From contig DASZHO010000200.1 of the NCBI GenBank assembly GCA_035937795.1, forward strand, positions 8,323 through 72,322: a stretch of 64,000 nucleotides of DNA, given 5' to 3'. Below, one piece after another: positions 11,756 through 64,000 of this stretch; the first letter of the stretch is position 1; the number at the start of each line of letters is the position of its first letter. Under the pieces are notes generated by a model. That model saw only the letters and a program-made list of their open reading frames with translations. It was not told the origin of the DNA and ran no database searches. Position numbers and translations under genes: made by a program. The stretch comes from Vicinamibacterales bacterium. GTDB lineage: Bacteria; Acidobacteriota; Vicinamibacteria; Vicinamibacterales; JAMQPK01.

Positions 11756-12862
11756 TCAACGCCATAACCGGCGGCCGCGGCCTGGCAGCGCAAAGAGATA
11801 GCGATTGGGCAGACGCTTGAGCCAGTACGGATGATCACCCGGGCGCACCCCGAGGGCTCCCCGCAACCGATTGGCAAACGCGCTGCGATACCCGAGCCGC
11901 TCGAGCGCTTCAACCGTGTGGCGGCCGGAGACGCCCCAGGGTAGGCAGATGTGATTCACCGACCGGATGGCAAGCCGTTCGTTCAACGTGGCGCGTCCGC
12001 GATCCAGTTCTTCTTCAATTTCTCGACGCTGTTCAGGCTCGCTCTCGAACGGCGTGCGAGTCTTCGCCTCGTTCGCAACGCGGCGCAGGGCGGCGCGCCA
12101 ATCGCCGCGTGAAAAGAACGCGGGGCCGCCCTCACGGGCGACCAGCTTCAGACACTGCTCGTGCACGTCGAGCGGTACCATCGCCCTGAGGCCATCCGAC
12201 ATGCGCGATCGCGCCGCGTACAGAGGCGCGCCGAGCTCGCTCGCGGTCAGGAACCTGAGCGCGGGGCGTGGCACTAGTTGAGGCCTGTTGAGCAGCGGCG
12301 TGCTCGCATAGTCGGGTGTGACAAACCCGCGAGCGTCGCTCGAGGAGAAAACCATCGAATGCGTATCTGTATGGCACTGCACGTCGATGACGCCGGAGAC
12401 GCTGAGCCGGCGCAGCTCGGGCCAGGTGACGAACGGCGAACCCTCCGCCGCCGGCCGGCCCTCATCATCCAGCGTGGGACGGCAGTCGGCGGCATCGACG
12501 ATGCGCGACGGGATGGCGTAAGCGATCGCCCTCATTCCATAGCGCCGCAGGAGCGGCGCGGCCACGGTCCAGAGACTTGCCCATGCATCGTCAAAGCAGA
12601 GGCCTACGAATCGACCCTTGAGCACCGTCTCGCGGCGGGCGTGCGCGGCGATCTCGGAAGAGGTCACCGTCCGGTATCCGTTCTCTGCGAGAAAATTCAG
12701 TTTTGCGTCGAGATCCGCGCGCGCGACCTCGTGAAAATGAAATACCGGCAGCAGATCGCCGGTCGGGCCGCCCAGCAGAAATGCAGGATAACGTCCGGCG
12801 GCCAGGTCGATGACGCCGCGCAGCTTCCCCCCACGCTCCTCGAAGGGCACGCCAGTTGTCAT
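11756..12862 (-). CDS. Polysaccharide deacetylase family protein (NodB-homology/CE4-like)
   Basis: ATG 12862. GLCFDDAWASLWTVAAPLLRRYGMRAIAYAI and HTDTHSMVF resemble NodB-homology motifs. First gene of the minus-strand operon 12862->6614. Confidence 0.75.
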   Translation of the reverse strand: MTTGVPFEERGGKLRGVIDLAAGRYPAFLLGGPTGDLLPVFHFHEVARADLDAKLNFLAENGYRTVTSSEIAAHARRETVLKGRFVGLCFDDAWASLWTVAAPLLRRYGMRAIAYAIPSRIVDAADCRPTLDDEGRPAAEGSPFVTWPELRRLSVSGVIDVQCHTDTHSMVFSSSDARGFVTPDYASTPLLNRPQLVPRPALRFLTASELGAPLYAARSRMSDGLRAMVPLDVHEQCLKLVAREGGPAFFSRGDWRAALRRVANEAKTRTPFESEPEQRREIEEELDRGRATLNERLAIRSVNHICLPWGVSGRHTVEALERLGYRSAFANRLRGALGVRPGDHPYWLKRLPNRYLFALPGRGRRLWR

Positions 12863-46282: not shown

Positions 46283-46873
46283 CTAACGCTTCGGACGCGG
46301 GCCGCGACCGCCATTCAGCCCATCCAGCTGAGCAATCACGAGGCGCAACTGGGCCGCGGTGTCGGAAAGCTGTTGCTGGCTGGCCTGATAGTCTCCGTCG
46401 TTGATCTGCGTGCCCGCTTTTTGCAGAGACGTATCGGCGCTGGCAATCGCCGCGCGCTGCGCGTTCAGCGATCGCCGTGGAACGTGCGCCGCCTCCACCG
46501 CGGCGAGCCGCCCATTGGCCTGCGCGAGCAGCGCCGTCACCTCGCTCAGGCGCCGTTCGGCGCCGCTGCGGAGAGCGACCTGCTGGTCGGCGGCCTGCTT
46601 GGCGGCCGCTTGCGCGCGTTCGCGGCTGTCGAGCGCATGGTTGAGCGCCAGCCGGTAGTCACGCTGGTCGACGGCGTCCTGCGCCTGCTTCAACGCGTCG
46701 ACCGCGGCTTGATATTCCTCGGTGGCGTACCGATCGGCGCCGGCGGCGCGGGCGGCATCGATGGCCCCTTGCGCCTGATCCATTTCGCGGGTTGGCGGTG
46801 TCCCGCACGCCGAGCTGAAGAGCGCAACGCAGAAAATGAGTACAGTCGCCACCAACGACAGGCGATCGAACAT
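46283..46873 (-). CDS. DUF4398-like coiled-coil lipoprotein
   Basis: ATG 46873 (the ORF track opens at 47074). MFDRLSLVATVLIFCVALFSSAC is a signal peptide with lipobox-like Cys. The Ala/Gln-rich REMDQAQGAIDAARAAGADRYATEEYQAAVDALKQA pattern is typical of DUF4398. Confidence 0.65.
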   Translation of the reverse strand: MFDRLSLVATVLIFCVALFSSACGTPPTREMDQAQGAIDAARAAGADRYATEEYQAAVDALKQAQDAVDQRDYRLALNHALDSRERAQAAAKQAADQQVALRSGAERRLSEVTALLAQANGRLAAVEAAHVPRRSLNAQRAAIASADTSLQKAGTQINDGDYQASQQQLSDTAAQLRLVIAQLDGLNGGRGPRPKR

Positions 46874-46901
46874 CACGCTGAGTATACCCCGCCACGCACA
46901 T

Positions 46902-47570
46902 ATGAAAGCGCTGTCGCCGGACGATCGGCCACGCGAAAAACTCCTCCGTTTGGGCGCCGCCGGATTGGGCGACAACGAGCTCGTCGCGATTGTGGTGGGC
47001 AGCGGCTCGCGTCGGGCCAACGCGCTGGCGCTGGCGAACCAGATTCTGGAAAATGCCGGCGGGCTGCACGGCATTCCCAGGAGCGGCGTCGACGACCTCC
47101 GGCGCCTCGACGGGATGGGGCTCGCGAAGGCGGCGCAGGTGCTCGCCGCGGTGGAGCTGGGCCGCCGGACGTTGCTGCGCTGCCCGCCCGTGCGCGTGAA
47201 ATTCAGTCACCCGCGCGACGTCGCCGGCTACCTGCTGCCGCAATTCGGCTCGCGGCCCGTCGAACAGTTTGGCCTCGTGATGCTCGACACCAAGCATCGG
47301 CTGCTGCGCACGTCGGTGATTTCGGTCGGCACGCTCGACTCCAGCCCGGCCCACCCCCGCGAAATTTTTCGCGAGGCGGCCTCCGCCTCCGCAGCCTGCA
47401 TCGTGCTGTTCCACAACCATCCGTCTGGCGATCCGACGCCGAGCGTCGACGACGTCGACTTGACGAGGCGGCTCGTGGCGGCAGGCGAGTTGATGGGCAT
47501 CGATGTGGTCGACCATTTGATTCTGGCCGACACGCGTTACTTCAGCTTCAAAGAGGCTGGTAGACTATAG
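46902..47570 (+). CDS. radC: RadC-family JAB/MPN-domain protein
   Basis: ATG 46902. MKALSPDDRPREKLLRLGAAGLGDNELVAIVVGSG...; HNHPSGDPTPS (JAMM motif). Confidence 0.85.
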   Translation: MKALSPDDRPREKLLRLGAAGLGDNELVAIVVGSGSRRANALALANQILENAGGLHGIPRSGVDDLRRLDGMGLAKAAQVLAAVELGRRTLLRCPPVRVKFSHPRDVAGYLLPQFGSRPVEQFGLVMLDTKHRLLRTSVISVGTLDSSPAHPREIFREAASASAACIVLFHNHPSGDPTPSVDDVDLTRRLVAAGELMGIDVVDHLILADTRYFSFKEAGRL

Positions 47571-47584
47571 GGCTTCGGGCTGCC

Positions 47585-47612
47585 CTGAGCCCTGAGCCCT
47601 GAGCTTTGAGCC
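47585..47612 (+). repeat. Heptamer tandem array CTGAGCC CTGAGCC CTGAGCT TTGAGCC
   Basis: Read directly. It begins 15 nt after the radC stop, and the last unit supplies the TTG start of larC. Confidence 0.85.
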
Positions 47613-48925
47613 GAATTCTCTACTTCGATTGTTTCTCCGGCGCCTCCGGCGATATGGTGCTGGGCGCGTTGCTCGATGCCGGGCTGCCGCTCGAGGAGCT
47701 TCGCGCGGCGCTCGGCAGCCTTGCCGTCGAGGGCGTCTCGGTGTCGGCTGCGAAGGTACTGCGCGCGGGGGTGTCAGCCACGAAGTTTTCCGTTCACGAA
47801 AACGGCCGGTACGGTCATCCGCATGACCATGCGCATTCGCACGATCACGACGAGCGCCATCTCCACGATCACCCGCGCGAGCAGGCAACCGCGCACACGC
47901 ACGATCACTCCGCCGCAGCGGTCGCCCAGGCGCATGGCCACCGGAGCCTCCCGGAGATTAACGCCCTCATCGAGCGGTCGGCGTTGTCGGGGTCCGCGAA
48001 GTCGCGCGCCGGCCAGCTGTTTCAGCGGCTGGGCGAGGTCGAGGCGGCCATCCACCAGATTCCTGTCGAGACCATTCACCTTCACGAGGTCGGCGCCCTC
48101 GACTCGATTATCGACATCGTCGGCGCGGTGTTCGCCCTCGAGTGGTTCAAGGCCGATCGCATCGTTTCCTCGCCGTTGAACGTCGGCGGAGGAATGGTGA
48201 TGTCCGCTCACGGCCGGTTTCCGGTGCCCGCGCCTGCGACTCTGAAGCTGCTCGAAGGGATTCCGATGTACTCGTCAGGCGCCGAGCGGGAGCTGGTCAC
48301 GCCCACCGGCGCGTTGCTGGTGTCTTCCTACGCAACGGCGTTTGGTCCGACGCCCGCGATGACCGTCGATAGGATAGGTTACGGCGCCGGCGATCGCGAC
48401 CCGTCGGACACGCCGAACGTGCTGCGCGTGATGATTGGCGAGAGCGCCGGGCACGCGGGCACCGAGCAGATCGTCGTGGTCGAGTGCGAGATCGACGACA
48501 TGAACCCGCAGCTGTTCGGATCGGTGATGGACAGGTTGTATGCCGCCGGAGCGCTGGAAGTCTATTTCGCGGCCGTCCAGATGAAAAAGAACCGGCCCGG
48601 CACGCTGCTCACGATCCTGGCGCGCCCCGAGCAGCGCGGGAGTCTCGTGTCGATCGTGTTTCGAGAGACGACGACAATTGGCGTGCGGTATCACGAGGTC
48701 ACGCGAGAGCGGCTGGAGCGCGAAATCGTTCGTGTGGAAACGCCTCTCGGCCCCATTCGTTTCAAAGTTGCCCGGCTTTGCGGGGAGGTGGTGAACGCGT
48801 CGCCCGAGTTCGAAGACTGCCTACGCGTTGCTGCCGGCGAGGCGATGCCCGTCAAGGAAGTGCAGGCGATCGCCGTGAAGGCTTACCTGGACCGGGAGAA
48901 CGCCGGGCGCAACCCTCAGGGCTGA
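47606..48925 (+). CDS. larC: LarC-family nickel insertion protein (DUF111)
   Basis: TTG start gives MSRILYFDCFSGASGDMVLGALLDAGL, a typical LarC N-terminus. His-rich tract HENGRYGHPHDHAHSHDHDERHLHDH. Confidence 0.85.
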   Translation: MSRILYFDCFSGASGDMVLGALLDAGLPLEELRAALGSLAVEGVSVSAAKVLRAGVSATKFSVHENGRYGHPHDHAHSHDHDERHLHDHPREQATAHTHDHSAAAVAQAHGHRSLPEINALIERSALSGSAKSRAGQLFQRLGEVEAAIHQIPVETIHLHEVGALDSIIDIVGAVFALEWFKADRIVSSPLNVGGGMVMSAHGRFPVPAPATLKLLEGIPMYSSGAERELVTPTGALLVSSYATAFGPTPAMTVDRIGYGAGDRDPSDTPNVLRVMIGESAGHAGTEQIVVVECEIDDMNPQLFGSVMDRLYAAGALEVYFAAVQMKKNRPGTLLTILARPEQRGSLVSIVFRETTTIGVRYHEVTRERLEREIVRVETPLGPIRFKVARLCGEVVNASPEFEDCLRVAAGEAMPVKEVQAIAVKAYLDRENAGRNPQG

Positions 48926-50862: not shown

Positions 50863-50938
50863 TCATCGTTGCTCAACCCGCCCGGCGCGGATTCCTCGCG
50901 CCGTGCGCTATAATCCCGCCCACTTCGGATCATCAATA

Positions 50939-52057
50939 ATGTTTCCAGCGGCTCCTCGCCGGCGGCTCGGGAATCCTTTTTTGCGGGGGCTCTTTGCGCT
51001 TTGCGTGCTGGCCCGTCCCATGCCGGCGGCGGCGCATCCGGTGCCCTTCAGCTATCTCGACCTGCGCCTCCAGCCGGGCCCGGCGGACGAGATCGACGGC
51101 TCGCTGGTCATCCATATTTTCGACCTGGCTCACGATCTCAATATCGATCCGCCCGAACGGCTGCTCGACCCGCGGCTGGTTGATCAAGAGGCCTCCGCGA
51201 TCGTTCGGCTCCTGAGTCCAAGACTCACAATCTCATCCGGCGGCCGCCCGTTGCGGGCGGAGTGGTCGCGGGTCGAGATCCTCGCCGAGCGGCAATCGCT
51301 GCGGGTGCATGTGCGATATCCGCTGGCGGCTGCGCCGGGGGCCCTGACGGTCCTTGCCGCGATGTTTCCCTACGACCCTGCGCACCAGACATTCATCAAT
51401 ATTTATGAGGGCGGGGCCCTCACCCAGGCGATTGTCGACGGCAGCCACCCGCGGTTTGAATACTTCGCAGGCACCGGTCAGGGGGCGCTCGCGGTGATGC
51501 GCAAGTTCATTCCCGCCGGCATTCACCATATCTTGATCGGTCCCGACCATCTGCTGTTTCTCTTCGGGCTCTTGCTGCTGGGCGGCAGCATCCGGCAGCT
51601 CGCCGTGGTCGTGACCTCCTTCACCGTTGCCCACAGCCTGACGCTGTCGCTCGCGGCGCTCAATATCGTGACGCCGCCCGTGCGGATCATCGAGCCGGCC
51701 ATTGCACTCAGCATCGTGTATGTCGGCGCCGACAACTTGCTGGTTCGTGACGGCCGCGACGTGCGCGCGTGGATTGCGTTCGGCTTCGGATTCATTCATG
51801 GCTTCGGCTTCGCGAACGTGCTGCGCGAAATGGACCTCCCGGCTCGCGCGCTCGGTTGGTCGCTGTTCTCTTTCAACGTGGGCGTGGAGATCGGCCAGCT
51901 CCTCGTCGTGGTCGCCGTCGCGTCCATGTTGAGGATAGTGAGCGCGCGCAGCGAAGCCGCCGGTCGGCGGGTCGCGTTTGCCGGTTCGATTGTCGTGATC
52001 GCGGCGGGAGCATTCTGGTTCGTTCAACGTGTCTTCTTTCCTGGAGGATGGTCATGA
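50939..52057 (+). CDS. HupE/UreJ-family membrane protein with N-terminal periplasmic extension
   Basis: ATG 50939 (the ORF opens at GTG 50903, across a TATAAT hexamer at 50909-50914). HHILIGPDHLLFLFGLLLLGG, FTVAHSLTLSLAAL, GFIHGFGFA. Confidence 0.75.
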   Translation: MFPAAPRRRLGNPFLRGLFALCVLARPMPAAAHPVPFSYLDLRLQPGPADEIDGSLVIHIFDLAHDLNIDPPERLLDPRLVDQEASAIVRLLSPRLTISSGGRPLRAEWSRVEILAERQSLRVHVRYPLAAAPGALTVLAAMFPYDPAHQTFINIYEGGALTQAIVDGSHPRFEYFAGTGQGALAVMRKFIPAGIHHILIGPDHLLFLFGLLLLGGSIRQLAVVVTSFTVAHSLTLSLAALNIVTPPVRIIEPAIALSIVYVGADNLLVRDGRDVRAWIAFGFGFIHGFGFANVLREMDLPARALGWSLFSFNVGVEIGQLLVVVAVASMLRIVSARSEAAGRRVAFAGSIVVIAAGAFWFVQRVFFPGGWS

Positions 52058-53908: not shown

Positions 53909-54634
53909 GTGAGAGTCTCCGTCATCGTTCCTGCATACAATGAGGAGCGCCTTTTAGCGGTAACGTTGCGCAGTATTTGTGAGGCGGCAAAGGAGTTCGA
54001 CCGGCAAGGCTGGTCGTCGGAAGTCATCGTGTGTGACAACAACTCCACGGACCGCACCCCGGAAATCGCCGCACAGGCCGGCGCGAAGGTCGTGTTCGAG
54101 CCGCTCAATCAGATCGCCCGCGCGCGCAATACCGGGGCCGCTCATGCCAATGGTGAATGGCTGATCTTTGTCGATGCGGACTGTTATCCAACCCCTGAGC
54201 TCTTTGCCGACATGGCCCGGACCATCCGGCAGGCGCGCTGCCTGGCCGGCGGCAGCACTGTTTCGGTGGAAGGAGCTCATCCGCTCATGAGCGCCGGGGT
54301 CTCGATCTGGAACGCGTTGAGCAGGATCAATAAATGGGCCGCCGGTTCATGTATCTTTTGTGAAGCGTCGGCGTTCCGCGAGGTGGGTGGGTTCAATCAG
54401 GCGATGTACGCGGGCGAGGAGATCGATCTGTTCCGGCGCTTGAAGCGTCTGGCCCGGCTGAAAGGTCGGATCATCGTTGTGCTCCATCGGCATCCGTTAC
54501 GGACGAGCGACCGCAAGGCCCGGCTTTACACATCGTGGGAACTGTTGACCTTCTTCGGTCGAACCATCGTGAGTGGAGGGCGGACACTGCGGAGCGCCGA
54601 GGCGTGCTACGCATGGTATGACGGCAGGCGATGA
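53909..54634 (+). CDS. Glycosyltransferase family 2 (small, soluble)
   Basis: GTG 53909. VSVIVPAYNEERLL...VIVCDNNSTDRT...FVDADC. Confidence 0.8.
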   Translation: MRVSVIVPAYNEERLLAVTLRSICEAAKEFDRQGWSSEVIVCDNNSTDRTPEIAAQAGAKVVFEPLNQIARARNTGAAHANGEWLIFVDADCYPTPELFADMARTIRQARCLAGGSTVSVEGAHPLMSAGVSIWNALSRINKWAAGSCIFCEASAFREVGGFNQAMYAGEEIDLFRRLKRLARLKGRIIVVLHRHPLRTSDRKARLYTSWELLTFFGRTIVSGGRTLRSAEACYAWYDGRR

Positions 54635-54635
54635 T

Positions 54636-54724
54636 GGGCTCAAGGATAGGGGTCTGGTGTTGTGTCATGCGGTCGATCTCTGACTGGTCACGGCACAGGG
54701 CTCAAGGCTCGGGGCTTGACAGCC
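54636..54724 (-). repeat. Weak reverse-orientation copies of the YTGAGCC motif
   Basis: GGGCTCAAGG at 54636-54645 and 54698-54707. The reverse complement of 54685-54724 reads ...CGAGCC TTGAGCC CTGTGCC GTGACC. Confidence 0.5.
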
Positions 54725-54791
54725 TGTGGTGAAAGTCGGCGCATAACGACGTGCGATACCGCGATGGAAATCGTGGCGAGCGATTTGCGAT

Positions 54792-55742
54792 TCAGAACAC
54801 GTCAAGATCCTGTCCGATGACAACCTTTCCGCGATAGATCCGCCGAATCTCCGCCAAGTATTGCTCGTCGGAGATCTCGTGACCCGGTGGACCCACGCCA
54901 CGGTGATAGACGATCAGAACTCCTGGCAGTGTCTTGTTCGCAATCTCCGCGAGCTGGGTGGTTGTCGTGTGGTACTTCGGCCGGTACTGCAGCCAGTTCA
55001 GCATGTCGGCGGGCCTGTAATCTTCGGAGAATGCCTCATGTATGAGGACGTCGCATTTTTGGCAGCTCTCGATCAGCGCAGGGCTGGGGCTCGTATCGCC
55101 TGAGATCACGACCGTGCGATCAGGCGTCTGGAATCGGTAGCCGTACGCCTGCAACTCCCCGTGCGAGACCGGAAACGCCGTCACTTTGACGCGGGAGTCT
55201 TGGTAGATCAGGCCAGGCTTCACATCGTGCGCCTCGACGGCGAGCCCGCTGGTACTGCGCTGCTCCAGACCCTTGGTCCGAACGCCGATGTCGACTTGCC
55301 ACGCGAGCATGATGTACTTCGTCATCGCCTCGAGACCTGTGGGACCGTACACTTTCAGCGGTCCGCGTCGGCCTTGCACCCATGTCGTGAAGATCAAATC
55401 GGGATAGCCGACCGTGTGGTCGGAATGCAGATGGGTGATAAATGCGGTTTGCAGGTTCACGACCGCGAGGCCTTTGATGCCTTTGTCGTAGGCGGCAGCC
55501 GCGCGTCGGACGATTCCAGGTCCCGCGTCGACGAGGTAGGGCGTGTCGTTGACGACGATGGCCGTGGCCGGTCCTGAGCGTTGCGGGTCGGCCCGTGGCG
55601 TTCCAGTCCCGAGCAGCACGACCTGTGTGTGACTCGCTGCCGGCGGCGTGGGGACCTGACGTCCGACCGCGGAATACGACGTAACGACCGTGAGCAATAG
55701 GAAGACTGCAGACACGCTGAGGAGGTGAAGTCGACTCCGCAT
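54792..55742 (-). CDS. Secreted MBL-fold metallo-hydrolase (RNase Z/beta-lactamase-fold type)
   Basis: ATG 55742. Signal peptide MRSRLHLLSVSAVFLLLTVV; VVLLGTGTPRADPQRSG; THLHSDHTVGY. Confidence 0.8.
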   Translation of the reverse strand: MRSRLHLLSVSAVFLLLTVVTSYSAVGRQVPTPPAASHTQVVLLGTGTPRADPQRSGPATAIVVNDTPYLVDAGPGIVRRAAAAYDKGIKGLAVVNLQTAFITHLHSDHTVGYPDLIFTTWVQGRRGPLKVYGPTGLEAMTKYIMLAWQVDIGVRTKGLEQRSTSGLAVEAHDVKPGLIYQDSRVKVTAFPVSHGELQAYGYRFQTPDRTVVISGDTSPSPALIESCQKCDVLIHEAFSEDYRPADMLNWLQYRPKYHTTTTQLAEIANKTLPGVLIVYHRGVGPPGHEISDEQYLAEIRRIYRGKVVIGQDLDVF

Positions 55743-55831
55743 ACTGTTCTCTGGTTCGCCATTCTACCAATGCATCGTGAATGGCGTATCGTCGGAACCT
55801 CAGGCGTCGCGCCGTGTACGACAATGCTTGT

Positions 55832-56050
55832 ATGGCCATGGGTACGCGTGAGCATGAACAGCCGCCGTTGTGGCCCCGGACCACTCGACGATTTCGCGGA
55901 CGCGGCGCCCGAGCGACGTGGATACGCATCGCGCCGTGTTTACCTGGGTGCAGCAACGGCTGGTCGAGGCCGGACTCCTGAAGGGCAAGACCGTCGCGAT
56001 CGACGCGACGACGGTGGAAGCGAATGCGGCGATGCGCAGCGGCGCAAAAT
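55832..56050 (+). mobile_element. Frameshifted, truncated relic of an IS5/IS1182-type (DUF772) transposase gene
   Basis: Homology is spread over three frames: MAMGTREHEQPPLW, GPLDDFADAAPE, and APDHSTISRTRRPSDVDTHRAVFTWVQQRLVEAGLLKGKTVAIDATTVEANAAMRS. The last block matches the conserved transposase N-terminal region from memory. No catalytic DDE part and no inverted repeats were seen. Confidence 0.6.
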
Positions 56051-56141
56051 CGATACTCCGTGAGGGATCCCAGCTGGATATTGAAGCAATTACAGTCGCT
56101 AGCAGTGGTTGGACGGTGTAACATCTGCAACTCTTCGCGCC

Positions 56142-56187
56142 ATGAGCCCTTCGCCTTGAGCCTTCGCCCTTAGCTCTGAGCCCTGAA
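56142..56187 (+). repeat. 7-nt-period array ATGAGCC CTTCGCC TTGAGCC TTCGCCC TTAGCTC TGAGCCC TGAA
   Basis: Read directly. It ends exactly at the tatD ATG (56188). Confidence 0.7.
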
Positions 56188-56967
56188 ATGATCGACTCCC
56201 ATTGCCACCTGGCCGATGACGCCTTTGCCGCTGATCTGGGCGCCGTGATCGATCGCGCGAAAGCCGCCGGGCTGACGCACGCGCTCTGCATTCTCGCCGC
56301 AGGCAACGCGACCGAAGCCGAGCGGGCGGCTCGTGCCCGGACGCTGTGGCCGGGCGTTCGGACGGCCGTAGGCGTGCATCCCCATCAGGCGGGCGAATAC
56401 GAGGACCGCGAGGACGACCTCGCGGTCATGGTCAAAAGCCAGATCTCGGGAGATCCGGCCGCGCGCGCGGTTGGCGAGATCGGCCTCGACTATCACTACG
56501 ACTTGGCGGCGAAGGAAACGCAGCGGCGTGTCTTCCGCGCGCAGATTCAGGTCGCTCGCGACATCGATCTGCCTGTCGTGATCCACACCCGCGAAGCCGA
56601 AGACGACACGCTCGCCATCTTGCGCGAGGAAGCTGCCGGCGGCTTGCGCGGTGTGCTGCATTGCTTCACCGGTACCCGCGCGTTGGCCGAGGAGGCGCTC
56701 GCCCTTGGATTACACATTTCGTTCGCCGGCATCGTCACCTTCCCCAAGGCAGGGGCGCTGAGGGATATTGCGCCCGCGGTGCCTGAAAACCGGTTGTTGT
56801 GCGAGACTGACAGTCCGTATCTCGCACCCACGCCGTACCGTGGGAAGCGCAACGAGCCCGCATGGGTGATCCGCATCGCCGAAGAACTCGCGGCGCTCCG
56901 ACAGGTGTCCGCAGACGAACTTCGGGAGCGGATGGCGGAGAATTTCGCCGCGCTGTTTCGCCCGTAA
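56188..56967 (+). CDS. tatD: TatD-family metal-dependent hydrolase/DNase
   Basis: MIDSHCHL, EIGLDYHYD, VVIHTREAEDD, GVLHCFTG, ETDSPYLAPTPYRGKRNEPAWV. Confidence 0.9.
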   Translation: MIDSHCHLADDAFAADLGAVIDRAKAAGLTHALCILAAGNATEAERAARARTLWPGVRTAVGVHPHQAGEYEDREDDLAVMVKSQISGDPAARAVGEIGLDYHYDLAAKETQRRVFRAQIQVARDIDLPVVIHTREAEDDTLAILREEAAGGLRGVLHCFTGTRALAEEALALGLHISFAGIVTFPKAGALRDIAPAVPENRLLCETDSPYLAPTPYRGKRNEPAWVIRIAEELAALRQVSADELRERMAENFAALFRP

Positions 56968-57031
56968 CGCTGCGCAAGGCAAGCGCCCGTTCGTTGACAC
57001 CCTCTCGGGAGTATGGTCTGATCATCTCGCT

Positions 57032-58039
57032 TTGAAGCACGCCGTCGAGCAACATCCGTCGTACGCCACGCTCGTCCAGATGTTCGAACCGATCCGGGCC
57101 GACCTGGAAAAGGTCGAGACCGAGTTCTACCGTCACGTCGAATCCCAGGTCGATCTCATTCCGAAAATCGGACGCTACATCCAGAACGGCGGCGGCAAGC
57201 GCGTCCGGCCGGCCGTGCTCCTGATGGCGGCAAGACTGACGGGCTACACGGGAGAGCTCGCCGTTCTTTACGCGGCGGTTGTCGAGTTCATCCACACCGC
57301 CACGCTCGTGCACGACGACATCATCGACGACTCGAAGTGGCGGCGCGGCCAACCCTCGGTGCATTCGCGATGGGGAAGCGACGTCACCGTGCTGCTTGGC
57401 GACTACCTGTACATCAAATCGATGGGGTTGGCGTTGACGCCTGACCGGCTCGATATCGTCCGCCAGCTCTGCGACGTGACGCTGCGGATGATTGAAGGCG
57501 AGCTGTATCAGCTTTCCAAGAAGGGCGACCTCGCGCTCACGGAAGACGAGCATCTGGAGATCGTCCGGCGCAAGACGGCGTATCTGTTCGGGGGCTGCGC
57601 GCGCATCGGCGGCGTGCTGGGCAACGCGAAACCGGAACAGGAACGTGCGCTGCAGGAATACGGCATCAGCCTCGGCATGTCGTTCCAGCTCATCGACGAT
57701 CTGCTGGATTTTTCAGGCGACCAGTCGGCGCTCGGCAAGCCGGTGGGCGGCGATCTTCGCGAAGGCAAGGTCACGCTGCCGATGATCCGGCTGCTTCAGC
57801 ACGCCGACGCCGACACGACCGAGATGATCACCGCAGTCGTGCGCGACGGCCTCGTGACGCCGGAAGGATGGCGCGAGTTGTGCCGCCTGCTTCACGAAAC
57901 GCGCTCGGTGGAGTACGCGATGGAGAAGGCGCAGCAATTCGCCGACGCCGCCAAGAAGCACCTGTGCGTGTTTCCGCCGTCTCCCGAGCGGGACGCGCTG
58001 ATGGCGCTTCCGGATTACATCCTCGCCAGAGATCGATAG
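57032..58039 (+). CDS. Long-chain polyprenyl diphosphate synthase (IspB-like)
   Basis: GGKRVRPAVLL; LVHDDIIDD (first DDxxD); FQLIDDLLD (second DDxxD). Start is TTG 57032 or ATG 57080. Chain length cannot be judged. Confidence 0.85.
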   Translation: MKHAVEQHPSYATLVQMFEPIRADLEKVETEFYRHVESQVDLIPKIGRYIQNGGGKRVRPAVLLMAARLTGYTGELAVLYAAVVEFIHTATLVHDDIIDDSKWRRGQPSVHSRWGSDVTVLLGDYLYIKSMGLALTPDRLDIVRQLCDVTLRMIEGELYQLSKKGDLALTEDEHLEIVRRKTAYLFGGCARIGGVLGNAKPEQERALQEYGISLGMSFQLIDDLLDFSGDQSALGKPVGGDLREGKVTLPMIRLLQHADADTTEMITAVVRDGLVTPEGWRELCRLLHETRSVEYAMEKAQQFADAAKKHLCVFPPSPERDALMALPDYILARDR

Positions 58040-60079
<2,040 letters not shown>

Positions 60080-60091
60080 TCACTAGGATTC

Positions 60092-61648
60092 ATGTCCCGG
60101 CCCTTTGTATTCGTGACGCTCGCGCTCACCGCGGCGATATCCTTCATGGTCGGTCTCCTGGTCGCCGTATCGGTAGTGCCGGCGTCAGCCCCGTCAGCCC
60201 CAATGACCGGCAGCCGCGCATGGGACCGGGCTCCATCTGCATCGCAGCCGCAGGCGCCGACGGCCGGCTTGGCGGCGGTCGTCCACGCCGGCAAGGCGGC
60301 GACGCCTCCGGTCACGGGCCTGGTGAATTTTGCCGACGTCGCCGAAAGCATCAACCCGGCCGTCGTCAACATCGAAGCCACCGCGCGGCCAGGAGAATCA
60401 GCGAACCGCCGCCGGCGCCCCCAGCCTGATTCGGGGCTCCTGGATGAAGGCGCACCCGGCCTGCAGAACATGCCGCCGCTTCATCCCCAGTCGGGCAGCG
60501 GGTTCGTGATCGAAAAGAACGGCCAGATCCTGACCAACTATCACGTGATACAGGGGGCCGAACGCATCACGGTGAAGTTTTCGGACGGCCGCAATCTGGT
60601 TGCCCGGGTGCTCGGCATTGATCCCGACACCGACATTGCCCTCATCAGAGTCGACGGCACGAATTTTCCTGTTGCTCCCCTCGGCAATTCTGATGCGCTG
60701 CGCGTCGGCGAATGGGTGTGCGCCATCGGCAATCCGCTCGCGTACGAGCACACGGTGACGGTGGGCGTGGTCAGCTATCTTGGCCGGAAGCTTTTCGACA
60801 GCAGCCTGGACAATTACATCCAGACCGACGCCGCGATCAACTTCGGCAACAGCGGCGGGCCGTTGATCAACAGCAGGGGCGAAGTGGTGGGCATCAACGC
60901 GGCCATCAGCCAGCGCGCGAGCAGCATCGGGTTCGCCGTGCCCATCAATGAGGCCACCGCGATTCTCCCGCAACTGAAGAGCGACGGCCGGGTCTCGCGC
61001 GGGTTCATGGGCGTGGGGCTCACCGACGTCGATCCGGATCTGCAACGTTCGCTGAGGCTCGGCTCGGTGCGCGGCGCACTGGTGCAGGACGTGTCTGCGG
61101 GATCCCCGGGCGAACGCGCGGGCTTGCGGCCTTACGACCTCATTACCGCCATTGAGGGCAGGGGCGTGGCCACCAACGACGAGATTATTCGCGAAGTGGC
61201 GCGCCGCGGGCCCGGCACGGTGGCTCGCCTCGAGATTGTGCGCGACGGCCAGCCGCAGGTGCTGACGGTGCGACTGGGAGAGAGGCCGAGCCGCCAGCCC
61301 CCTGATCCAGCCGAAGGCAGAGGTCACGCGATCTTGCAGGCCTCCGCCGGCATGCCCCTCGGGCTTGACGTGCGCGATCTCGACCGCGATCTCGTCCGGC
61401 GACTCCGTCTGCCGGGCGGCATGCGGGGCGTGGTGGTGACGCGCGTCGACCCCTTGAGCGCTGCGTGGGACGCCGGCATCCAGCGCGATTACGTCGTGTT
61501 GGAAATCAATCGGCGTCCCGTGACGTCTGTGGACGGTTACAACCGGCTTGCCCGAGCCGCGCGCCCCGGCGACGTCGTTGCGGTGTATGTCTATGTTCCC
61601 GGCCTCGAACAGCGCGCCATACGGGGCGTCCGCGTCGACGCGCGCTAG
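60092..61648 (+). CDS. htrA: HtrA/DegP/DegQ-family periplasmic serine protease with two PDZ domains
   Basis: TNYHVI (His), DIALIRV (Asp), GNSGGPLIN (Ser), followed by two PDZ-like regions. Confidence 0.88.
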   Translation: MSRPFVFVTLALTAAISFMVGLLVAVSVVPASAPSAPMTGSRAWDRAPSASQPQAPTAGLAAVVHAGKAATPPVTGLVNFADVAESINPAVVNIEATARPGESANRRRRPQPDSGLLDEGAPGLQNMPPLHPQSGSGFVIEKNGQILTNYHVIQGAERITVKFSDGRNLVARVLGIDPDTDIALIRVDGTNFPVAPLGNSDALRVGEWVCAIGNPLAYEHTVTVGVVSYLGRKLFDSSLDNYIQTDAAINFGNSGGPLINSRGEVVGINAAISQRASSIGFAVPINEATAILPQLKSDGRVSRGFMGVGLTDVDPDLQRSLRLGSVRGALVQDVSAGSPGERAGLRPYDLITAIEGRGVATNDEIIREVARRGPGTVARLEIVRDGQPQVLTVRLGERPSRQPPDPAEGRGHAILQASAGMPLGLDVRDLDRDLVRRLRLPGGMRGVVVTRVDPLSAAWDAGIQRDYVVLEINRRPVTSVDGYNRLARAARPGDVVAVYVYVPGLEQRAIRGVRVDAR

Positions 61649-61674: not shown

Positions 61675-63069
61675 ATGAAGCCTCGAATTCTCGTGATTGA
61701 TGACGATGCGGGGATCCGCGAGTCGGTAAGACGCACGTTGGAATACCAGGGGTATCAGTTCGTGGGTGCTGCCACCGGCCCCGAAGGGCTGGCGCTGATC
61801 GAGCGCGACACTCCCGACCTCGTGTTCCTCGATATCAAGATGCCCGGCATGGATGGCCTCGAAGTGCTCGAGCGGATCAAGACATCCAATCCCGCGCTGC
61901 CGGTGGTGATGGTCTCGGGGCACGGCACCACGCAAACCGGCTTTGAGGCGCGCGACAGGGGAGCGTCGGGATTCATCGAAAAGCCCTTCTCGGAGGCGGT
62001 GCTCATCGAGCGGGTCCAGAAGGAGCTGAGTGAAAACCGCACGCAAACCGCTTACCGGGCGCTCCGCCAGGAGATTGACTCCCGTTATCAGATGGTCGGC
62101 AACGGCCCGGCGCTCCAGAAAGTGCAGGACGCCATTCACAAAGCGGGGCCCAGCAAGGCCACCGTGCTCCTGCAGGGTGAGAGCGGCGTTGGCAAAGAGC
62201 TGGTGGCGCGGACCATCCATCGCAACAGCCCGCGCAGCCGCGAGCGCTTTGTTCAGGTCAATTGCGCCGCGATTCCCGAAGATCTCATCGAGTCGGAATT
62301 GTTCGGCCACGAAAAGGGCTCCTTCACCGGAGCCACCGAACGGCAAGTGGGCAAGTTCGAGCAGGCCGACCGCGGCACGATCTTTCTCGATGAAGTCGGC
62401 GATATGAGCCTGAAGACGCAGGCCAAAGTGCTCCGCGTGCTCCAGGAAGGCGAAGTGGAGAGGCTTGGTTCGGCGAAGACCGCAACGGTGGACGTCCGCG
62501 TGATTGCCGCCACCAACAAGAACCTTGAAGAGGAAATCGAAAAGGGCAATTTTCGCGAGGACTTGTATTTCCGGCTCGCCGTCATCCCGATTTACGTGCC
62601 GCCGCTGCGCGAGCGCCCCGAAGATATCCCGCTGCTGCTAAAGCATTTCCTGGACACGTTGAGCCGCGAGAACAACCAGAAGCCCAAGCGCATGACGCCG
62701 GCAGCCATCGAAGCGTTCAAGCGTCACCGCTGGCGCGGCAATATCCGCGAGCTGAGAAACACCGTCGAGCGGCTCATCATCATGAGCTCGGGCGACATGA
62801 TCGACCTGCCCGACCTGCCCGAATCGCTGCGCTCCGACAAGGCCGCGCCGCGGCCCGCGGTCACGGGCGCTCCGGCGGTCTCGAGCGGCACGGCGGATGC
62901 CGGCACGCTGCGGCAATTCAAAGAGTCGGCCGAGCGGGCCTATCTGGTCGAGAAACTGCGCGAGAACGCGTGGAATATTTCGAAGACCGCGGAGGTGATC
63001 GGCACGCCGCGCAGCAATCTCTACAAGAAGCTGGAGCAGTACGCGATCCGGCAGGAAACCGACGGATAG
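61675..63069 (+). CDS. Sigma-54-dependent response regulator (NtrC/Fis family enhancer-binding protein)
   Basis: ATG 61675. REC domain ILVIDDD...LVFLDIKMPGMDG; AAA+ GESGVGKE; GAFTGA-type loop EKGSFTGA; C-terminal HTH WNISKTAEVIGTPRSNLYKKLEQY. Confidence 0.88.
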   Translation: MKPRILVIDDDAGIRESVRRTLEYQGYQFVGAATGPEGLALIERDTPDLVFLDIKMPGMDGLEVLERIKTSNPALPVVMVSGHGTTQTGFEARDRGASGFIEKPFSEAVLIERVQKELSENRTQTAYRALRQEIDSRYQMVGNGPALQKVQDAIHKAGPSKATVLLQGESGVGKELVARTIHRNSPRSRERFVQVNCAAIPEDLIESELFGHEKGSFTGATERQVGKFEQADRGTIFLDEVGDMSLKTQAKVLRVLQEGEVERLGSAKTATVDVRVIAATNKNLEEEIEKGNFREDLYFRLAVIPIYVPPLRERPEDIPLLLKHFLDTLSRENNQKPKRMTPAAIEAFKRHRWRGNIRELRNTVERLIIMSSGDMIDLPDLPESLRSDKAAPRPAVTGAPAVSSGTADAGTLRQFKESAERAYLVEKLRENAWNISKTAEVIGTPRSNLYKKLEQYAIRQETDG

Positions 63070-63084
63070 GAACGGGACCAAGCC

Positions 63085-63158
63085 TTGGGCCCTGAGGCTT
63101 GAGAGCCCTGCTTGAGCCCTGAGCTTGAGCCCTGAGCCTTGAGCCCTGAGCCCTTTTG
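63085..63158 (+). repeat. Largest YTGAGCC heptamer tandem array (about 10 units)
   Basis: Read directly: TTGGGCC CTGAGGC TTGAGAGCC CTGC TTGAGCC CTGAGC TTGAGCC CTGAGCC TTGAGCC CTGAGCC CTTTTGAG. It lies between the activator stop (63069) and rnpB. Confidence 0.9.
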
Positions 63159-63188
63159 AGTCACACTGTGGGTTCGTTCTTTGACAAC

Positions 63189-63694
63189 ACCGCCGCAGTC
63201 GGCCAGACGATCGCTGCCGGTGAAGGCGACCTCGTTTTCACTGGGAGAGGAAAGTCCGAACTCCGCAGGGCAGTGCGCCGGGTAACGCCCGGTCAGGGTG
63301 ACCTGAAGGACAGTGGCACAGAAAATATACCGCCCGCCTGTACGCTTCGCGCCAGGCGTTGCCGGCCCGCAAGGGCTTGCGGCGCCGAAGCCGGAGACGA
63401 AGGCGGGTAAGGGTGAAAAGGTGCGGTAAGAGCGCACCGCGTCTGCCGTAAGGCAGATGGCAGGCAAAACCCCGCACGGAGCAAGACCAAATAGGGAAGC
63501 GACGCGCTCGCTCGCGAGCGTCGAAAGGACGGCCCGTCCCAGGCTTCCGGGTAGGTCGCTTGAGTCCGCCAGCGATGGCGGAGCTAGAGGAATGATCGTC
63601 TCCCGAGGCGCGGCTCTCGTGCGCGCGACATCGCGTGCGTGGTGAGCTTCGCGGAGGGAACAGAATTCGGCTTACGGTCCGGCTGCGGCGCTTT
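63189..63694 (+). ncRNA. rnpB: RNase P RNA, bacterial type A
   Basis: GAGGAAAGTCCG (63247-63258), GGGTAACGCCCGG, GTAAGGGTGAAAAGGTGCGGTAAGAGCGCACC (63407-63438), ACAGAATTCGGCTTA (63659-63674). P1 pairing: CGCCGCAGTCGG near 63191 with CCGGCTGCGGCG near 63679-63690. The ends are approximate (+/-5 nt). Confidence 0.9.
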
Positions 63695-63702
63695 TTGGCT
63701 CT

Positions 63703-63765
63703 CAACTTTTTACTTTTAACTTTCAACTTTTAACTTTTTACTTTCAACTTTTAACTCTTTACTTT
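63703..63765 (+). repeat. AT-rich heptamer tandem array (NNACTTT) x9
   Basis: Read directly: CAACTTT TTACTTT TAACTTT CAACTTT TAACTTT TTACTTT CAACTTT TAACTCT TTACTTT. It ends 2 nt before ATG 63768. There is no G on the + strand from 63699 to 63769. Confidence 0.9.
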
Positions 63766-63767
63766 CC

Positions 63768-64000
63768 ATGACCTATCTCGTCACCGGCGGAGCCGGCTTC
63801 ATCGGCTCCCACCTTGCTGAAGAGCTGAGCCGCCGCGGAGAGCGCGTCCGCGTGGTCGACAGCTTCATCACCGGCAAGCGCCAGAATCTGACGCATCTAT
63901 CCAACGTCGAGCTGATCGAAGGCGATCTCGCGGACCTGAAGATCGCGCAGGCCGCGGTAGCCGGCATCGACTACGTGCTCCACCAGGCGGCGATCCCGTC
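63768..64000 (+). CDS. NAD-dependent epimerase/dehydratase (extended SDR), N-terminal part; runs off the window
   Basis: My own translation: MTYLVTGGAGFIGSHLAEELSRRGERVRVVDSFITGKRQNLTHLSNVELIEGDLADLKIAQAAVAGIDYVLHQAAIP (GxxGxxG Rossmann motif). It is absent from the ORF track because there is no stop inside the window. Confidence 0.8.
   Translation, partial: MTYLVTGGAGFIGSHLAEELSRRGERVRVVDSFITGKRQNLTHLSNVELIEGDLADLKIAQAAVAGIDYVLHQAAIP

Follow-up and report, generated by a model that had tools for sequence, protein, structure and literature searches.

Intergenic heptanucleotide arrays in a Vicinamibacterales bacterium: members of a known, still unexplained class of bacterial repeats

Between the gene for a sigma-54 activator and rnpB, the gene for RNase P RNA, a 64,000-nucleotide stretch of DNA from a Vicinamibacterales bacterium (Acidobacteriota; contig DASZHO010000200.1, positions 8,323 to 72,322), referred to here as the window, carries ten tandem units of the heptanucleotide YTGAGCC, and related arrays lie in other gaps between its genes. 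What kind of element is this, and does it have a function? We find that the arrays are real and more widespread than a preliminary description of the window had recognized and that they belong to a known, still unexplained class of repeats. That description knew of no element with such a unit, which holds for YTGAGCC itself but not for the class, since intergenic heptanucleotide repeats have been described before (PMC4692102; PMC4679880). As argued below, the arrays are probably heptanucleotide microsatellites that change in place within gaps lacking promoters.

Heptanucleotide arrays in the window

The window holds five sites with the YTGAGCC unit and one array with a different unit (lengths are in nucleotides [nt]; scores are from Tandem Repeats Finder [TRF]).

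63085-63152, + strand: largest (YTGAGCC)n array, 10 units, between the stop of the sigma-54 activator gene (63067-63069) and rnpB
47571-47612, + strand: compact hairpin form in the RadC-LarC gap, with a left arm at 47571-47582 and four right-arm units at 47585-47612
56139-56186, + strand: degenerate array upstream of TatD, about 7 units, 64% matches, with a 14-nt superunit CTTCGCC-TTGAGCC
58050-58067, no strand: 18-nt mini-palindrome GGCTCAA-AGCC-TTGAGCC, one unit per arm
54637-54645 (one unit) and 54688-54716 (four degenerate units, 72% matches, TRF score 30), - strand: weak reverse members
63702-63766, + strand: second heptamer array, (AACTTTT)9, with a 21-nt superunit, TRF score 109, 93% matches, from the rnpB 3' end to the epimerase ATG

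The first four units of the largest array are degenerate (TTGgGCC, CTGAGgC, TTGAGagCC, and CTGc) and the last six are near perfect (TTGAGCC, CTGAGC, TTGAGCC, CTGAGCC, TTGAGCC, and CTGAGCC), which gives a T/C-alternating 14-nt superunit, TTGAGCC-CTGAGCC (TRF scores of 63 to 87). Because its 5' end is degenerate and its 3' end alternates perfectly, this array may have grown recently by 14-nt blocks. The alternation, which had been described for this array at the outset, is local to it and is no family rule: across the YTGAGCC family, 71% of units are of the C type and 29% of the T type, and neighboring units are independent of each other. In the compact hairpin, a degenerate inverted left arm, GGCTTCGGGCTG (47571-47582), pairs with the right-arm units at 47585-47612. 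The weakest member of the family is the site at 54637-54716, which sits in a convergent gap between the stop of a GT2 glycosyltransferase gene (54634) and the stop of a minus-strand gene for a metallo-beta-lactamase-fold protein (54792). The AT-rich unit AACTTTT occurs in a genome with a GC content of 63%, and its array ends 2 nt before the epimerase ATG at 63768.

To compare these arrays with chance, the two-unit 14-mer YTGAGCCYTGAGCC was sought across the window with at most one mismatch, both in the real sequence and in 100 shuffles. It was found nine times against 0.06 expected, and none of the 100 shuffles reached nine. The hexamer TGAGCC alone occurs 30 times on the + strand and 20 times on the - strand, where about 20 are expected per strand; 12 of the + strand copies lie inside arrays, and lone copies outside arrays show no enrichment. 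The arrays themselves are non-random. The arrays are also unevenly placed, since among gaps of 15 nt or more none of the 17 before 47 kb has one and 6 of the 12 after it do (P ~0.002, by our own hypergeometric arithmetic from the gap counts), which agrees with the earlier remark that none occurs in the glycan locus. Four independently assembled metagenome contigs (L121-L123 and L225) carry base-identical copies, so the arrays are not assembly artifacts. All five YTGAGCC sites first reported were recovered in the sequence, TRF detects all the arrays, and we conclude that the YTGAGCC arrays are a real, dispersed family of intergenic 7-nt arrays.

Period-7 arrays in loci sampled without regard to repeats

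A sample unselected for repeats was assembled from the window and 80 metagenome loci fetched via the activator protein (461 kb in total). It contained 41 tandem arrays of period 7 with at least three copies, compared with 2, 5, 6, and 10 arrays of periods 5, 6, 8, and 9, and dinucleotide shuffles yielded 5.4 period-7 arrays. The excess is not a bias of the tool, because the TRF score threshold favors periods 8 and 9 over period 7. Units vary by genome and include ATGGCTA, GGTGCTC, CCGAGCC, AGTTTTC, and CTCAATT, among others.

When periods 7, 14, and 21 are counted together as one period-7 family, the sample holds 61 arrays. Only 8 of the 61 are genic, while 83% of the DNA is coding. Of 47 intergenic arrays, 40 are flanked by co-directional genes, 7 by convergent genes, and none by divergent genes; the background gaps of these kinds number 149, 24, and 19, respectively. 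They begin 2 to 20 nt after the upstream stop, 25 of the 61 (41%) have an inverted partner within 160 nt and can thus form long hairpins, and a heptamer array is found in roughly 20% of gaps of at least 10 nt.

The same sample bears on a role suggested by the unit itself. The preliminary description pointed out that with a 7-nt period the embedded TGA falls in all three reading frames within any three units, and the arithmetic is correct for YTGAGCC on the + strand. If the arrays were insulators that halt ribosomes in whichever frame they arrive, a stop should be a design feature of the units; however, of 31 heptamer units in co-directional gaps of the unselected loci, only 9 contain any sense-strand stop, against 25% expected for random heptamers. 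AACTTTT has no stop, and 13 of 34 single YTGAGCC arrays in other Acidobacteriota run antisense to their neighbors, where the unit reads GGCTCAR and again lacks one. We regard a stop insulator as very unlikely.

Two contigs from more distant relatives of the activator locus contain (AACTGAT)n, identical to the published TAACTGA repeat except for the register (L166, 3930-4015; L167, 388-461, 4369-4442, and 5695-5788). There it is paired with an upstream (AGTTTTC)n as an imperfect inverted repeat, and four such elements lie within 7 kb of L167.

Turnover of arrays at orthologous gaps

Roughly 100 contigs with synteny around LigA were found. Six syntenic contigs with 81 to 90% LigA identity (L223, L224, L226, L227, L228, and L229) allowed the same gaps to be compared among relatives. 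In the RadC-LarC gap, a hairpin runs from stop to start in three genomes, measuring 35 nt in the window, 75 nt in L224, and 113 nt in L223. The L223 hairpin is built of YAGAGCC, and one arm can evidently expand alone, since its arms are unequal (4 versus 7 units); L229 has (GAGCAGA)4 in this gap. Upstream of TatD, the 7 degenerate units of the window correspond to 18.6 units in L224, where the upstream flank is conserved, and to a 32-nt gap without an array in L223 and L226. The gap between the polyprenyl synthase gene and LigA, which has one unit per arm in the window, holds about 4 and about 8 units in L223 and L224, respectively; in L227 there are three degenerate ones, L228 has none, and L229 carries an AT-rich array of six (ATTCTAG/ATTTCAG). 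The LigA-HtrA gap is only 12 nt long in the window, and in L228 (82% LigA identity) it holds a 109-nt (CAGCTTC)n/(GAAGCTG)n hairpin (12080-12188), a clear case of a lineage-specific new array whose unit is found again at two other gaps of the contig.

The gaps on either side of rnpB behave in the same manner. Between the NtrC-type activator gene and rnpB, the 10 units of the window are matched by about 10 degenerate units in L224, by an unrelated GC hairpin in L223, and by (GGGATTN)4-5 in L229, and more distant relatives have other units or nothing. Between rnpB and the epimerase gene, 9 units in the window are replaced by (GACTTTT)3-4 in L223, (TACTTTT)6 in L229, a degenerate array in L224, and ATTTCAG units in L124 and L127.

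One unit can be reused at several gaps of a genome (YTGAGCC at 5 gaps within 17 kb of the window, YAGAGCC at 2 in L223, and AGCTTCC at 3 in L228), and L229 has four different units at four gaps. Copy number at orthologous gaps ranges from 1 to 19 units. What persists, this comparison shows, is the site and the presence of a heptamer array; the number of copies, the variant of the unit, and even the unit as a whole do not. Length comparison among the exact-protein-match contigs (L121-L123 and L225) was uninformative, the arrays being of the same length in contigs that are otherwise 100% identical, and this is hence a weak test of stability; the orthologous gaps of relatives do vary.

Such turnover speaks to the proposal that TTGAGC, repeated every 14 nt, might act as a -35 box or UP-like promoter element. 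TTGAGC agrees with TTGACA at 4 of 6 positions, and the largest array does lie upstream of rnpB. However, a sigma-70 scan with hexamers 16 to 18 nt apart found no -35/-10 pair anywhere in 47-64 kb, none of the 47 intergenic heptamer arrays lies in a divergent gap, the TACAAT box near rnpB in relatives is independent of arrays, and array sequence is not conserved in close relatives, whereas promoter-like boxes at 50863-50980 and 56968-57031 are. The -35 proposal did not hold, and a promoter role is extremely unlikely. Overall, the view of YTGAGCC arrays as promoters or as programmed stop-codon devices is not supported.

The two conserved boxes lie in array-free gaps: gtgcgcTATAATcc precedes a HupE-like gene (gap 50863-50980) and cgttcgTTGACAccct..gggagTATGGTctgatcatctcgct precedes the polyprenyl synthase gene (gap 56968-57031), and both are strongly conserved in L223 and L224. 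They are probably promoters or a leader element, although the simple promoter scan did not flag them. The TACAAT box stands just upstream of rnpB in the more distant relatives; its place is taken in the window, L223, and L224 by a conserved TTTGACAA common to all three.

The same unit in other genomes

A scan for (YTGAGCC)3 in one genome per species returned at least 120 matches, and the figures that follow refer to the matches listed. Of 120 such matches, 63 came from Acidobacteriota, spanning Vicinamibacteria, Luteitalea, Thermoanaerobaculia, Acidobacteriaceae, and many unclassified metagenome-assembled genomes (MAGs). Acidobacteriota MAGs often had at least 3 to 6 loci each among the matches listed, and the other phyla there had single arrays, at no more than a few loci in any genome. 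YTGAGCC arrays are also present in a Luteitalea sp. MAG. The genome of the window was not among the matches listed. Viral contigs gave no sign of a phage vehicle (19 with (YTGAGCC)3 among 2.9 million).

Nearly all YTGAGCC arrays in the 63 Acidobacteriota loci are intergenic. Their commonest layout is an inverted pair, (GGCTCAR)~4 - spacer - (YTGAGCC)~4, of which there are about 20. In a typical pair, 1 to 12 nt separate a stop from the left arm, and the right arm comes to within 2 to 15 nt of the following gene. Several MAGs have a spacer that is palindromic and conserved in its own right, GGCAAGATCTTCGAG...CTCGAAGGTTTTGCC. The pair forms a predicted hairpin of about 40 bp with a folding energy of -83 to -87 kcal/mol (z = -12 to -14). 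Single arrays between co-directional genes of other Acidobacteriota are co-oriented with those genes in 21 of 34 cases and not in 13, so that the co-orientation with neighboring genes noted for the window is correct there but follows no rule elsewhere.

Many (YTGAGCC)n arrays stand at the very ends of contigs (L034, L049, L059, L103, L006, L210, and L213, and also L121). The arrays probably break short-read assemblies, so that their abundance in MAGs is probably underestimated.

The paired layout brings to mind REP, BIME, and REPIN palindromes, which are extragenic hairpins found after stops or between co-transcribed genes, in many copies and often as inverted doublets. A mobile hairpin of this kind, or one resembling a miniature inverted-repeat transposable element (MITE), would consist of (GGCTCAR)~4 - core - (YTGAGCC)~4 and be moved by a transposase encoded elsewhere, and one-armed arrays would be its decayed halves. 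The 20 or so paired elements at different loci of the same Acidobacteriota genomes, the core common to several MAGs, the very stable folds, the REP-like position after stops and rarity in divergent gaps, and the recurrence of one unit at several gaps per genome all fit such an element. On the other hand, flanking direct repeats are at the chance level (mean of 2.48 versus 2.45 for the null), with no target-site duplications; the MAG core has 5 matches in the window with at most 3 mismatches against 2.5 expected, none of them at an array; and one MAG carries at least two unrelated cores on the same arms. The unrelated units at orthologous gaps, of which L229 alone has four, favor an in-place origin over a single element. 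Transposases of the Y1 or RAYT type did not turn up, though no genome-wide search was made for them, and the 10 neighboring window proteins that were scanned contained no transposase domain. We consider a mobile hairpin possible but unlikely; the reading stays alive because of the recurrence of units, their wide spread, the conserved cores, and the mirroring of units between the arms of the L224 hairpin.

Established families were checked in the same connection. A fixed REP or REPIN palindrome was rejected, since the window copies range from 18 to 70 nt, have only the 7-nt unit in common, and lack the MAG core. MITEs were rejected too: inverted arms are present, but target-site duplications do not exceed chance. 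More generally, arrays with variable tandem 7-nt arms, turnover of the unit at orthologous sites, and no conserved core in the window differ from the fixed 20- to 40-nt palindrome of REPs and REPINs. An Rfam search of the window and of 15 array- or hairpin-rich loci, at the gathering threshold, gave no match other than RNase P RNA and one tRNA, and the arrays correspond to no catalogued family.

Predicted structures of the arrays

Folded as RNA, the arrays of the window differ widely. The largest (folded with its flanks as 63060-63200) is no more structured than shuffled sequence (z = -0.27), and the site at 54637-54716 has no significant fold (z = -0.95). The RadC-LarC hairpin at 47571-47612 folds to -34.4 kcal/mol (z = -3.86) and the mini-palindrome at 58050-58067 has a z of -2.26. 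The TatD leader array has less structure than shuffled sequence (z = +1.77), and almost none is predicted for the AACTTTT tract (-3.9 kcal/mol over 96 nt). Hairpin forms other than the window's own range from -54 to -87 kcal/mol (z = -5 to -14).

Intrinsic terminators were considered and rejected: a scan found 6 such sites against 12 expected in shuffles, no heptamer-array hairpin has a T-run, and no T-runs follow the right arms. The terminator-like site that involves a unit (54635-54656) is formed by pairing of the lone unit at 54637-54645 with sequence outside the repeat.

At the DNA level, (GGCTCAG)n offers GGG tracts, and G-quadruplex (G4) formation has been argued for the GGGAATC repeats of Xanthomonas (PMC4692102). 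On the complementary strand, consecutive C-type units read as G3N4 repeats (about 18 such units in L224), and four-unit arms are common here, as they are in Xanthomonas. Nevertheless, neither strand of the window has a single canonical motif (at least four G3 tracts with loops of 1 to 7 nt), the T-type units (29%) break the tracts, and AT-rich heptamer families behave alike. A G4 or i-motif basis is thus highly improbable. The complement of CTGAGCC, GGCTCAG, is also identical to the conserved positions 21 to 27 of 16S rRNA (the 3' end of the universal 27F primer site), a 7-mer match that is presumably due to chance.

Neighboring genes and start codons

The genes that flank the arrays, named from Pfam and their translations, are as follows.

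46836-47570: RadC; the array begins at 47571, right after the stop at 47570
47606-48925: LarC-type nickel insertion protein, TTG start
53909-54634: GT2 glycosyltransferase
54792-55742, - strand: metallo-beta-lactamase-fold gene
56188-56967: TatD, ATG start
57032-58039: polyprenyl synthase
58070-60079: LigA, GTG start
60092-61648: HtrA-like protease
61675-63069, + strand: NtrC-type sigma-54-dependent response regulator, TAG stop; exact-match contigs have Pfam Response_reg, Sigma54_activat, and HTH_8
63195-63690, + strand: rnpB (RNase P RNA, class A; Rfam RF00010, 274.8 bits), with heptamer arrays on both sides and not itself part of the repeat family
ATG at 63768: NAD-dependent epimerase

The closest named LigA homologues (78 to 81% identity) are annotated as Vicinamibacterales or Acidobacteria, which puts the window in Vicinamibacterales. 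As first described, window arrays abut stops and starts, namely, the RadC stop, the LarC TTG, the TatD ATG, and the LigA GTG. The TTG start (47606) and the Ser codon of the LarC-like gene both come from the final unit, TTGAGCC (TTG AGC CGA = M S R). Since LarC orthologues begin with ATG TCA CGA or ATG GCC CGT directly after their own arrays, the repeat has replaced the first two codons while the peptide was kept. The L224 LigA gene call likewise starts within an array (GTGAGCCCTGAA). Before the TatD ATG at 56188, the last full unit, CTGAGCC (56176-56182), ends 5 nt away, and a partial unit, CTGAA, ends 1 nt short of it. The LigA GTG at 58070 lies 2 nt past the palindrome at 58050-58067 and is confirmed by a 669-amino-acid database protein with a 100% match.

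Such contacts raise the question of whether the arrays act in translation. In that case an array might replace the Shine-Dalgarno (SD) sequence, as a standby site or a binding site of the S1, Csp, or CsrA-like kind, or a hairpin might couple termination to translation. In keeping with this, arrays end 0 to 9 nt before the LarC, TatD, LigA, and epimerase starts, none of which has an SD; two one-armed arrays are unusually unstructured (those of the TatD leader and the AACTTTT tract); the RadC-LarC hairpin spans exactly stop to start in three genomes; and the same arrangement has been noted for TAACTGA repeats (PMC4679880). However, the wider sample follows no strand rule (21 co-oriented versus 13), and many arrays lie in convergent gaps, which have no downstream start. 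We also compared G.U with C.A asymmetry in 21 hairpin elements against gene direction, using rough, home-made gene calls, and found no relation: only 5 of the 12 hairpins in co-directional gaps form the more stable RNA from the sense strand. In gaps this short any array must touch both neighbors, and L223 and L226, which lack the array, presumably still express TatD. SD-like motifs precede only about 6 of 50 predicted starts in the window (the predictions come from our own rough gene finder), and many starts are GTG or TTG; because SD motifs are rare at nearly all starts, their absence before array-preceded genes is not special. Taken together, a cis-acting RNA role in translation seems improbable. 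Mimicry of the SD itself was rejected, since TGAGCC pairs with the anti-SD over only about 3 bp (about -1.9 kcal/mol). Low SD use is typical of other heptamer-rich phyla (cyanobacteria, Bacteroidota, and Beggiatoaceae).

The surroundings of rnpB call for separate mention. In some relatives (L139 and L140), rnpB stands only 3 to 8 nt past the activator stop, and in L223 (14972-15520) it ends only about 30 nt ahead of the epimerase ATG. Such close spacing points to probable co-transcription, followed by processing, of the NtrC gene, rnpB, and the epimerase gene. Each AACTTTT unit contains AC|UUU, which resembles the RNase E cleavage consensus.

The segment from GT2 to TatD (54635-56187) is 1.55 kb long in the window, and L223 and L226 have only 32 nt there. 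The L225 gene identical to the metallo-beta-lactamase-fold gene at 54792-55742 also has a Pfam match to Anti-Pycsar_Apyc1, and an 83-amino-acid open reading frame at 55870-56121 has no Pfam match and looked to us like a transposase fragment. L224 has a different filler of 660 nt before TatD yet shares the 60 nt just upstream of the TatD array.

Origin and maintenance of the arrays

We judge it probable, without being certain, that the YTGAGCC and AACTTTT arrays are heptanucleotide microsatellites, i.e., long simple sequence repeats (SSRs) of the same kind as the STRR, GGGAATC, and TAACTGA repeats, which occupy non-promoter gaps. They show every trait of the heptanucleotide SSR class: at least three copies beyond chance, intergenic position, a dispersed unit, variation at orthologous gaps, inverted pairs, and avoidance of divergent gaps. 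Such microsatellites would grow, shrink, and change unit in place as blocks of 7 nt (sometimes 14 nt) are duplicated or lost; these changes are seen between relatives, and replication slippage is the process that we propose for them. The arrays would survive only where they are harmless, and selection of this sort could produce the observed scarcity in coding DNA and the absence from divergent promoter gaps, leaving short stop-to-start spacers for arrays to fill. Many may have started on the arms of a hairpin that closely follows a gene, or may lengthen such arms; the full form would then be a long palindrome whose arms repeat every 7 nt, and the largest array of the window and other one-armed arrays would be its asymmetric or decayed form. 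Because relatives carry unrelated units at the same orthologous gap, the 7-nt step is unlikely to reflect a sequence-specific reader, and it may instead reflect a property of replication slippage, as Mrazek proposed in 2007 according to the summary in PMC4679880. Any function might be structural and independent of sequence, with hairpins perhaps serving as 3'-end or intercistronic stem-loops and one-armed arrays as unstructured transcribed spacers in a genome with few SD sites.

Several observations weigh against in-place growth as the full account. Slippage alone leaves it unexplained that one unit recurs at separate gaps of one genome and that (YTGAGCC)3 is found in several Acidobacteriota classes (63 of the 120 matches listed). 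The conserved core GGCAAGATCTTCGAG...CTCGAAGGTTTTGCC of some MAGs looks like a dispersed element rather than a product of growth in place. The two arms in L224 mirror each other in their variant units, which needs pairing selection or template switching. The four metagenome contigs with identical copy number reveal no short-term instability, a weak test given that the contigs are otherwise identical. The recurrence of units, their spread, the cores, and the mirrored arms may also stem from gene conversion or from template switching between arms.

A bolder idea, which we think rather doubtful, is that the conserved property is the 7-nt periodicity itself. This would imply either a period-specific mutational machine shared across phyla or a periodicity-dependent function for about 20% of spacers, with a homogenizing process that spreads one unit in some genomes. 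If so, the machine would be common to Acidobacteriota, Xanthomonadales, cyanobacteria, and Bacteroidota, and the homogenizing process would be gene conversion or a small mobile hairpin.

Relation to known heptanucleotide repeats

The closest precedents are the GGGAATC repeats of Xanthomonas and the GGGGA(C/T)T repeats of Nostoc, described from 186 sites, 89 to 93% of them intergenic, with a mode of four units (Rehm et al. 2015, PMC4692102). About 40% form convergent inverted pairs, there is no gene-strand bias, divergent gaps are under-represented, and the same gene pairs carry repeats of different lengths and sequences in sister species, with no function found (PMC4692102). The arrays described here are likewise built of a dispersed 7-nt unit, are intergenic with about 4 units, form inverted pairs without strand bias, and lie near the end of the upstream gene. 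All of the properties listed for Xanthomonas and Nostoc are thus reproduced for a different unit and phylum. They differ in the unit (YTGAGCC), in the lack of a canonical G4 in the window, and in their acidobacterial host; in addition, several unrelated units coexist and are swapped at orthologous gaps, and in some MAGs the arms are separated by a palindromic core that is conserved.

TAACTGA repeats of marine Beggiatoaceae, cyanobacteria, and Bacteroidetes stand in 2 to 6 copies directly before starts in SD-poor genomes (MacGregor 2015, PMC4679880). Most Beggiatoa copies are in the forward direction before starts, and a translational role has been proposed (PMC4679880). The likeness extends to arrays before starts in an SD-poor genome, a stop inside the unit, a scattered phylogeny, and AACTGAT itself in L166 and L167. 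In contrast, the Acidobacteriota arrays are not tied to the strand of their neighbors, and many of them are paired in inverted orientation or stand between convergent genes; the unit of the window also differs.

The oldest example of the class is the short tandemly repeated repetitive (STRR) sequences of cyanobacteria, with several heptamer families per genome, in intergenic or transcribed spacers and with variable copy number. STRRs occur in or next to rnpB in heterocystous cyanobacteria. The arrays here are of another phylum and of other units, and they flank rnpB in the window and do not interrupt it. Cyanobacterial STRR heptanucleotides are known, e.g., from Calothrix PCC 7601, as cited in PMC4692102. 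The arrays also resemble the contingency-locus SSRs of host-adapted pathogens in being slippage-prone tandem repeats near gene starts. Unlike those SSRs, which have units of 1 to 5 nt and lie in promoters or coding 5' ends of surface genes, they have a 7-nt unit and housekeeping neighbors (LarC, TatD, LigA, and rnpB), and their copy number is identical in four independent metagenome contigs. As relayed in PMC4679880, Mrazek (2007) found heptanucleotides to be the commonest long SSRs and suggested that the 7-nt length corresponds to the segment of DNA that the polymerase holds. At least in the accounts cited here, they have stood since 2007 as the most over-represented class of long bacterial SSRs, without an accepted cause or function. 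Our literature search found no paper on heptamer repeats in Acidobacteria or Vicinamibacteria.

Acidobacteriota thus become a fourth, distant phylum with the same syndrome of a 7-nt step, arms of about four units, inverted pairs, avoidance of promoter gaps, and rapid turnover at fixed sites. What is added here is a comparative set in which sites and periodicity persist and sequence does not, a unit that in the window lacks canonical G4 potential, and the density of arrays in a soil lineage. That lack weakens the case for G-quadruplexes made for Xanthomonas. With arrays in about one-fifth of the spacers of abundant soil bacteria, the repeats matter for the calling of gene starts, for breaks in assemblies, and for strain typing. 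The Vicinamibacterales clade has cultured relatives, such as Luteitalea and Vicinamibacter, and because these exist and a Luteitalea sp. MAG carries the same arrays, the question of what the arrays are and do is experimentally approachable.

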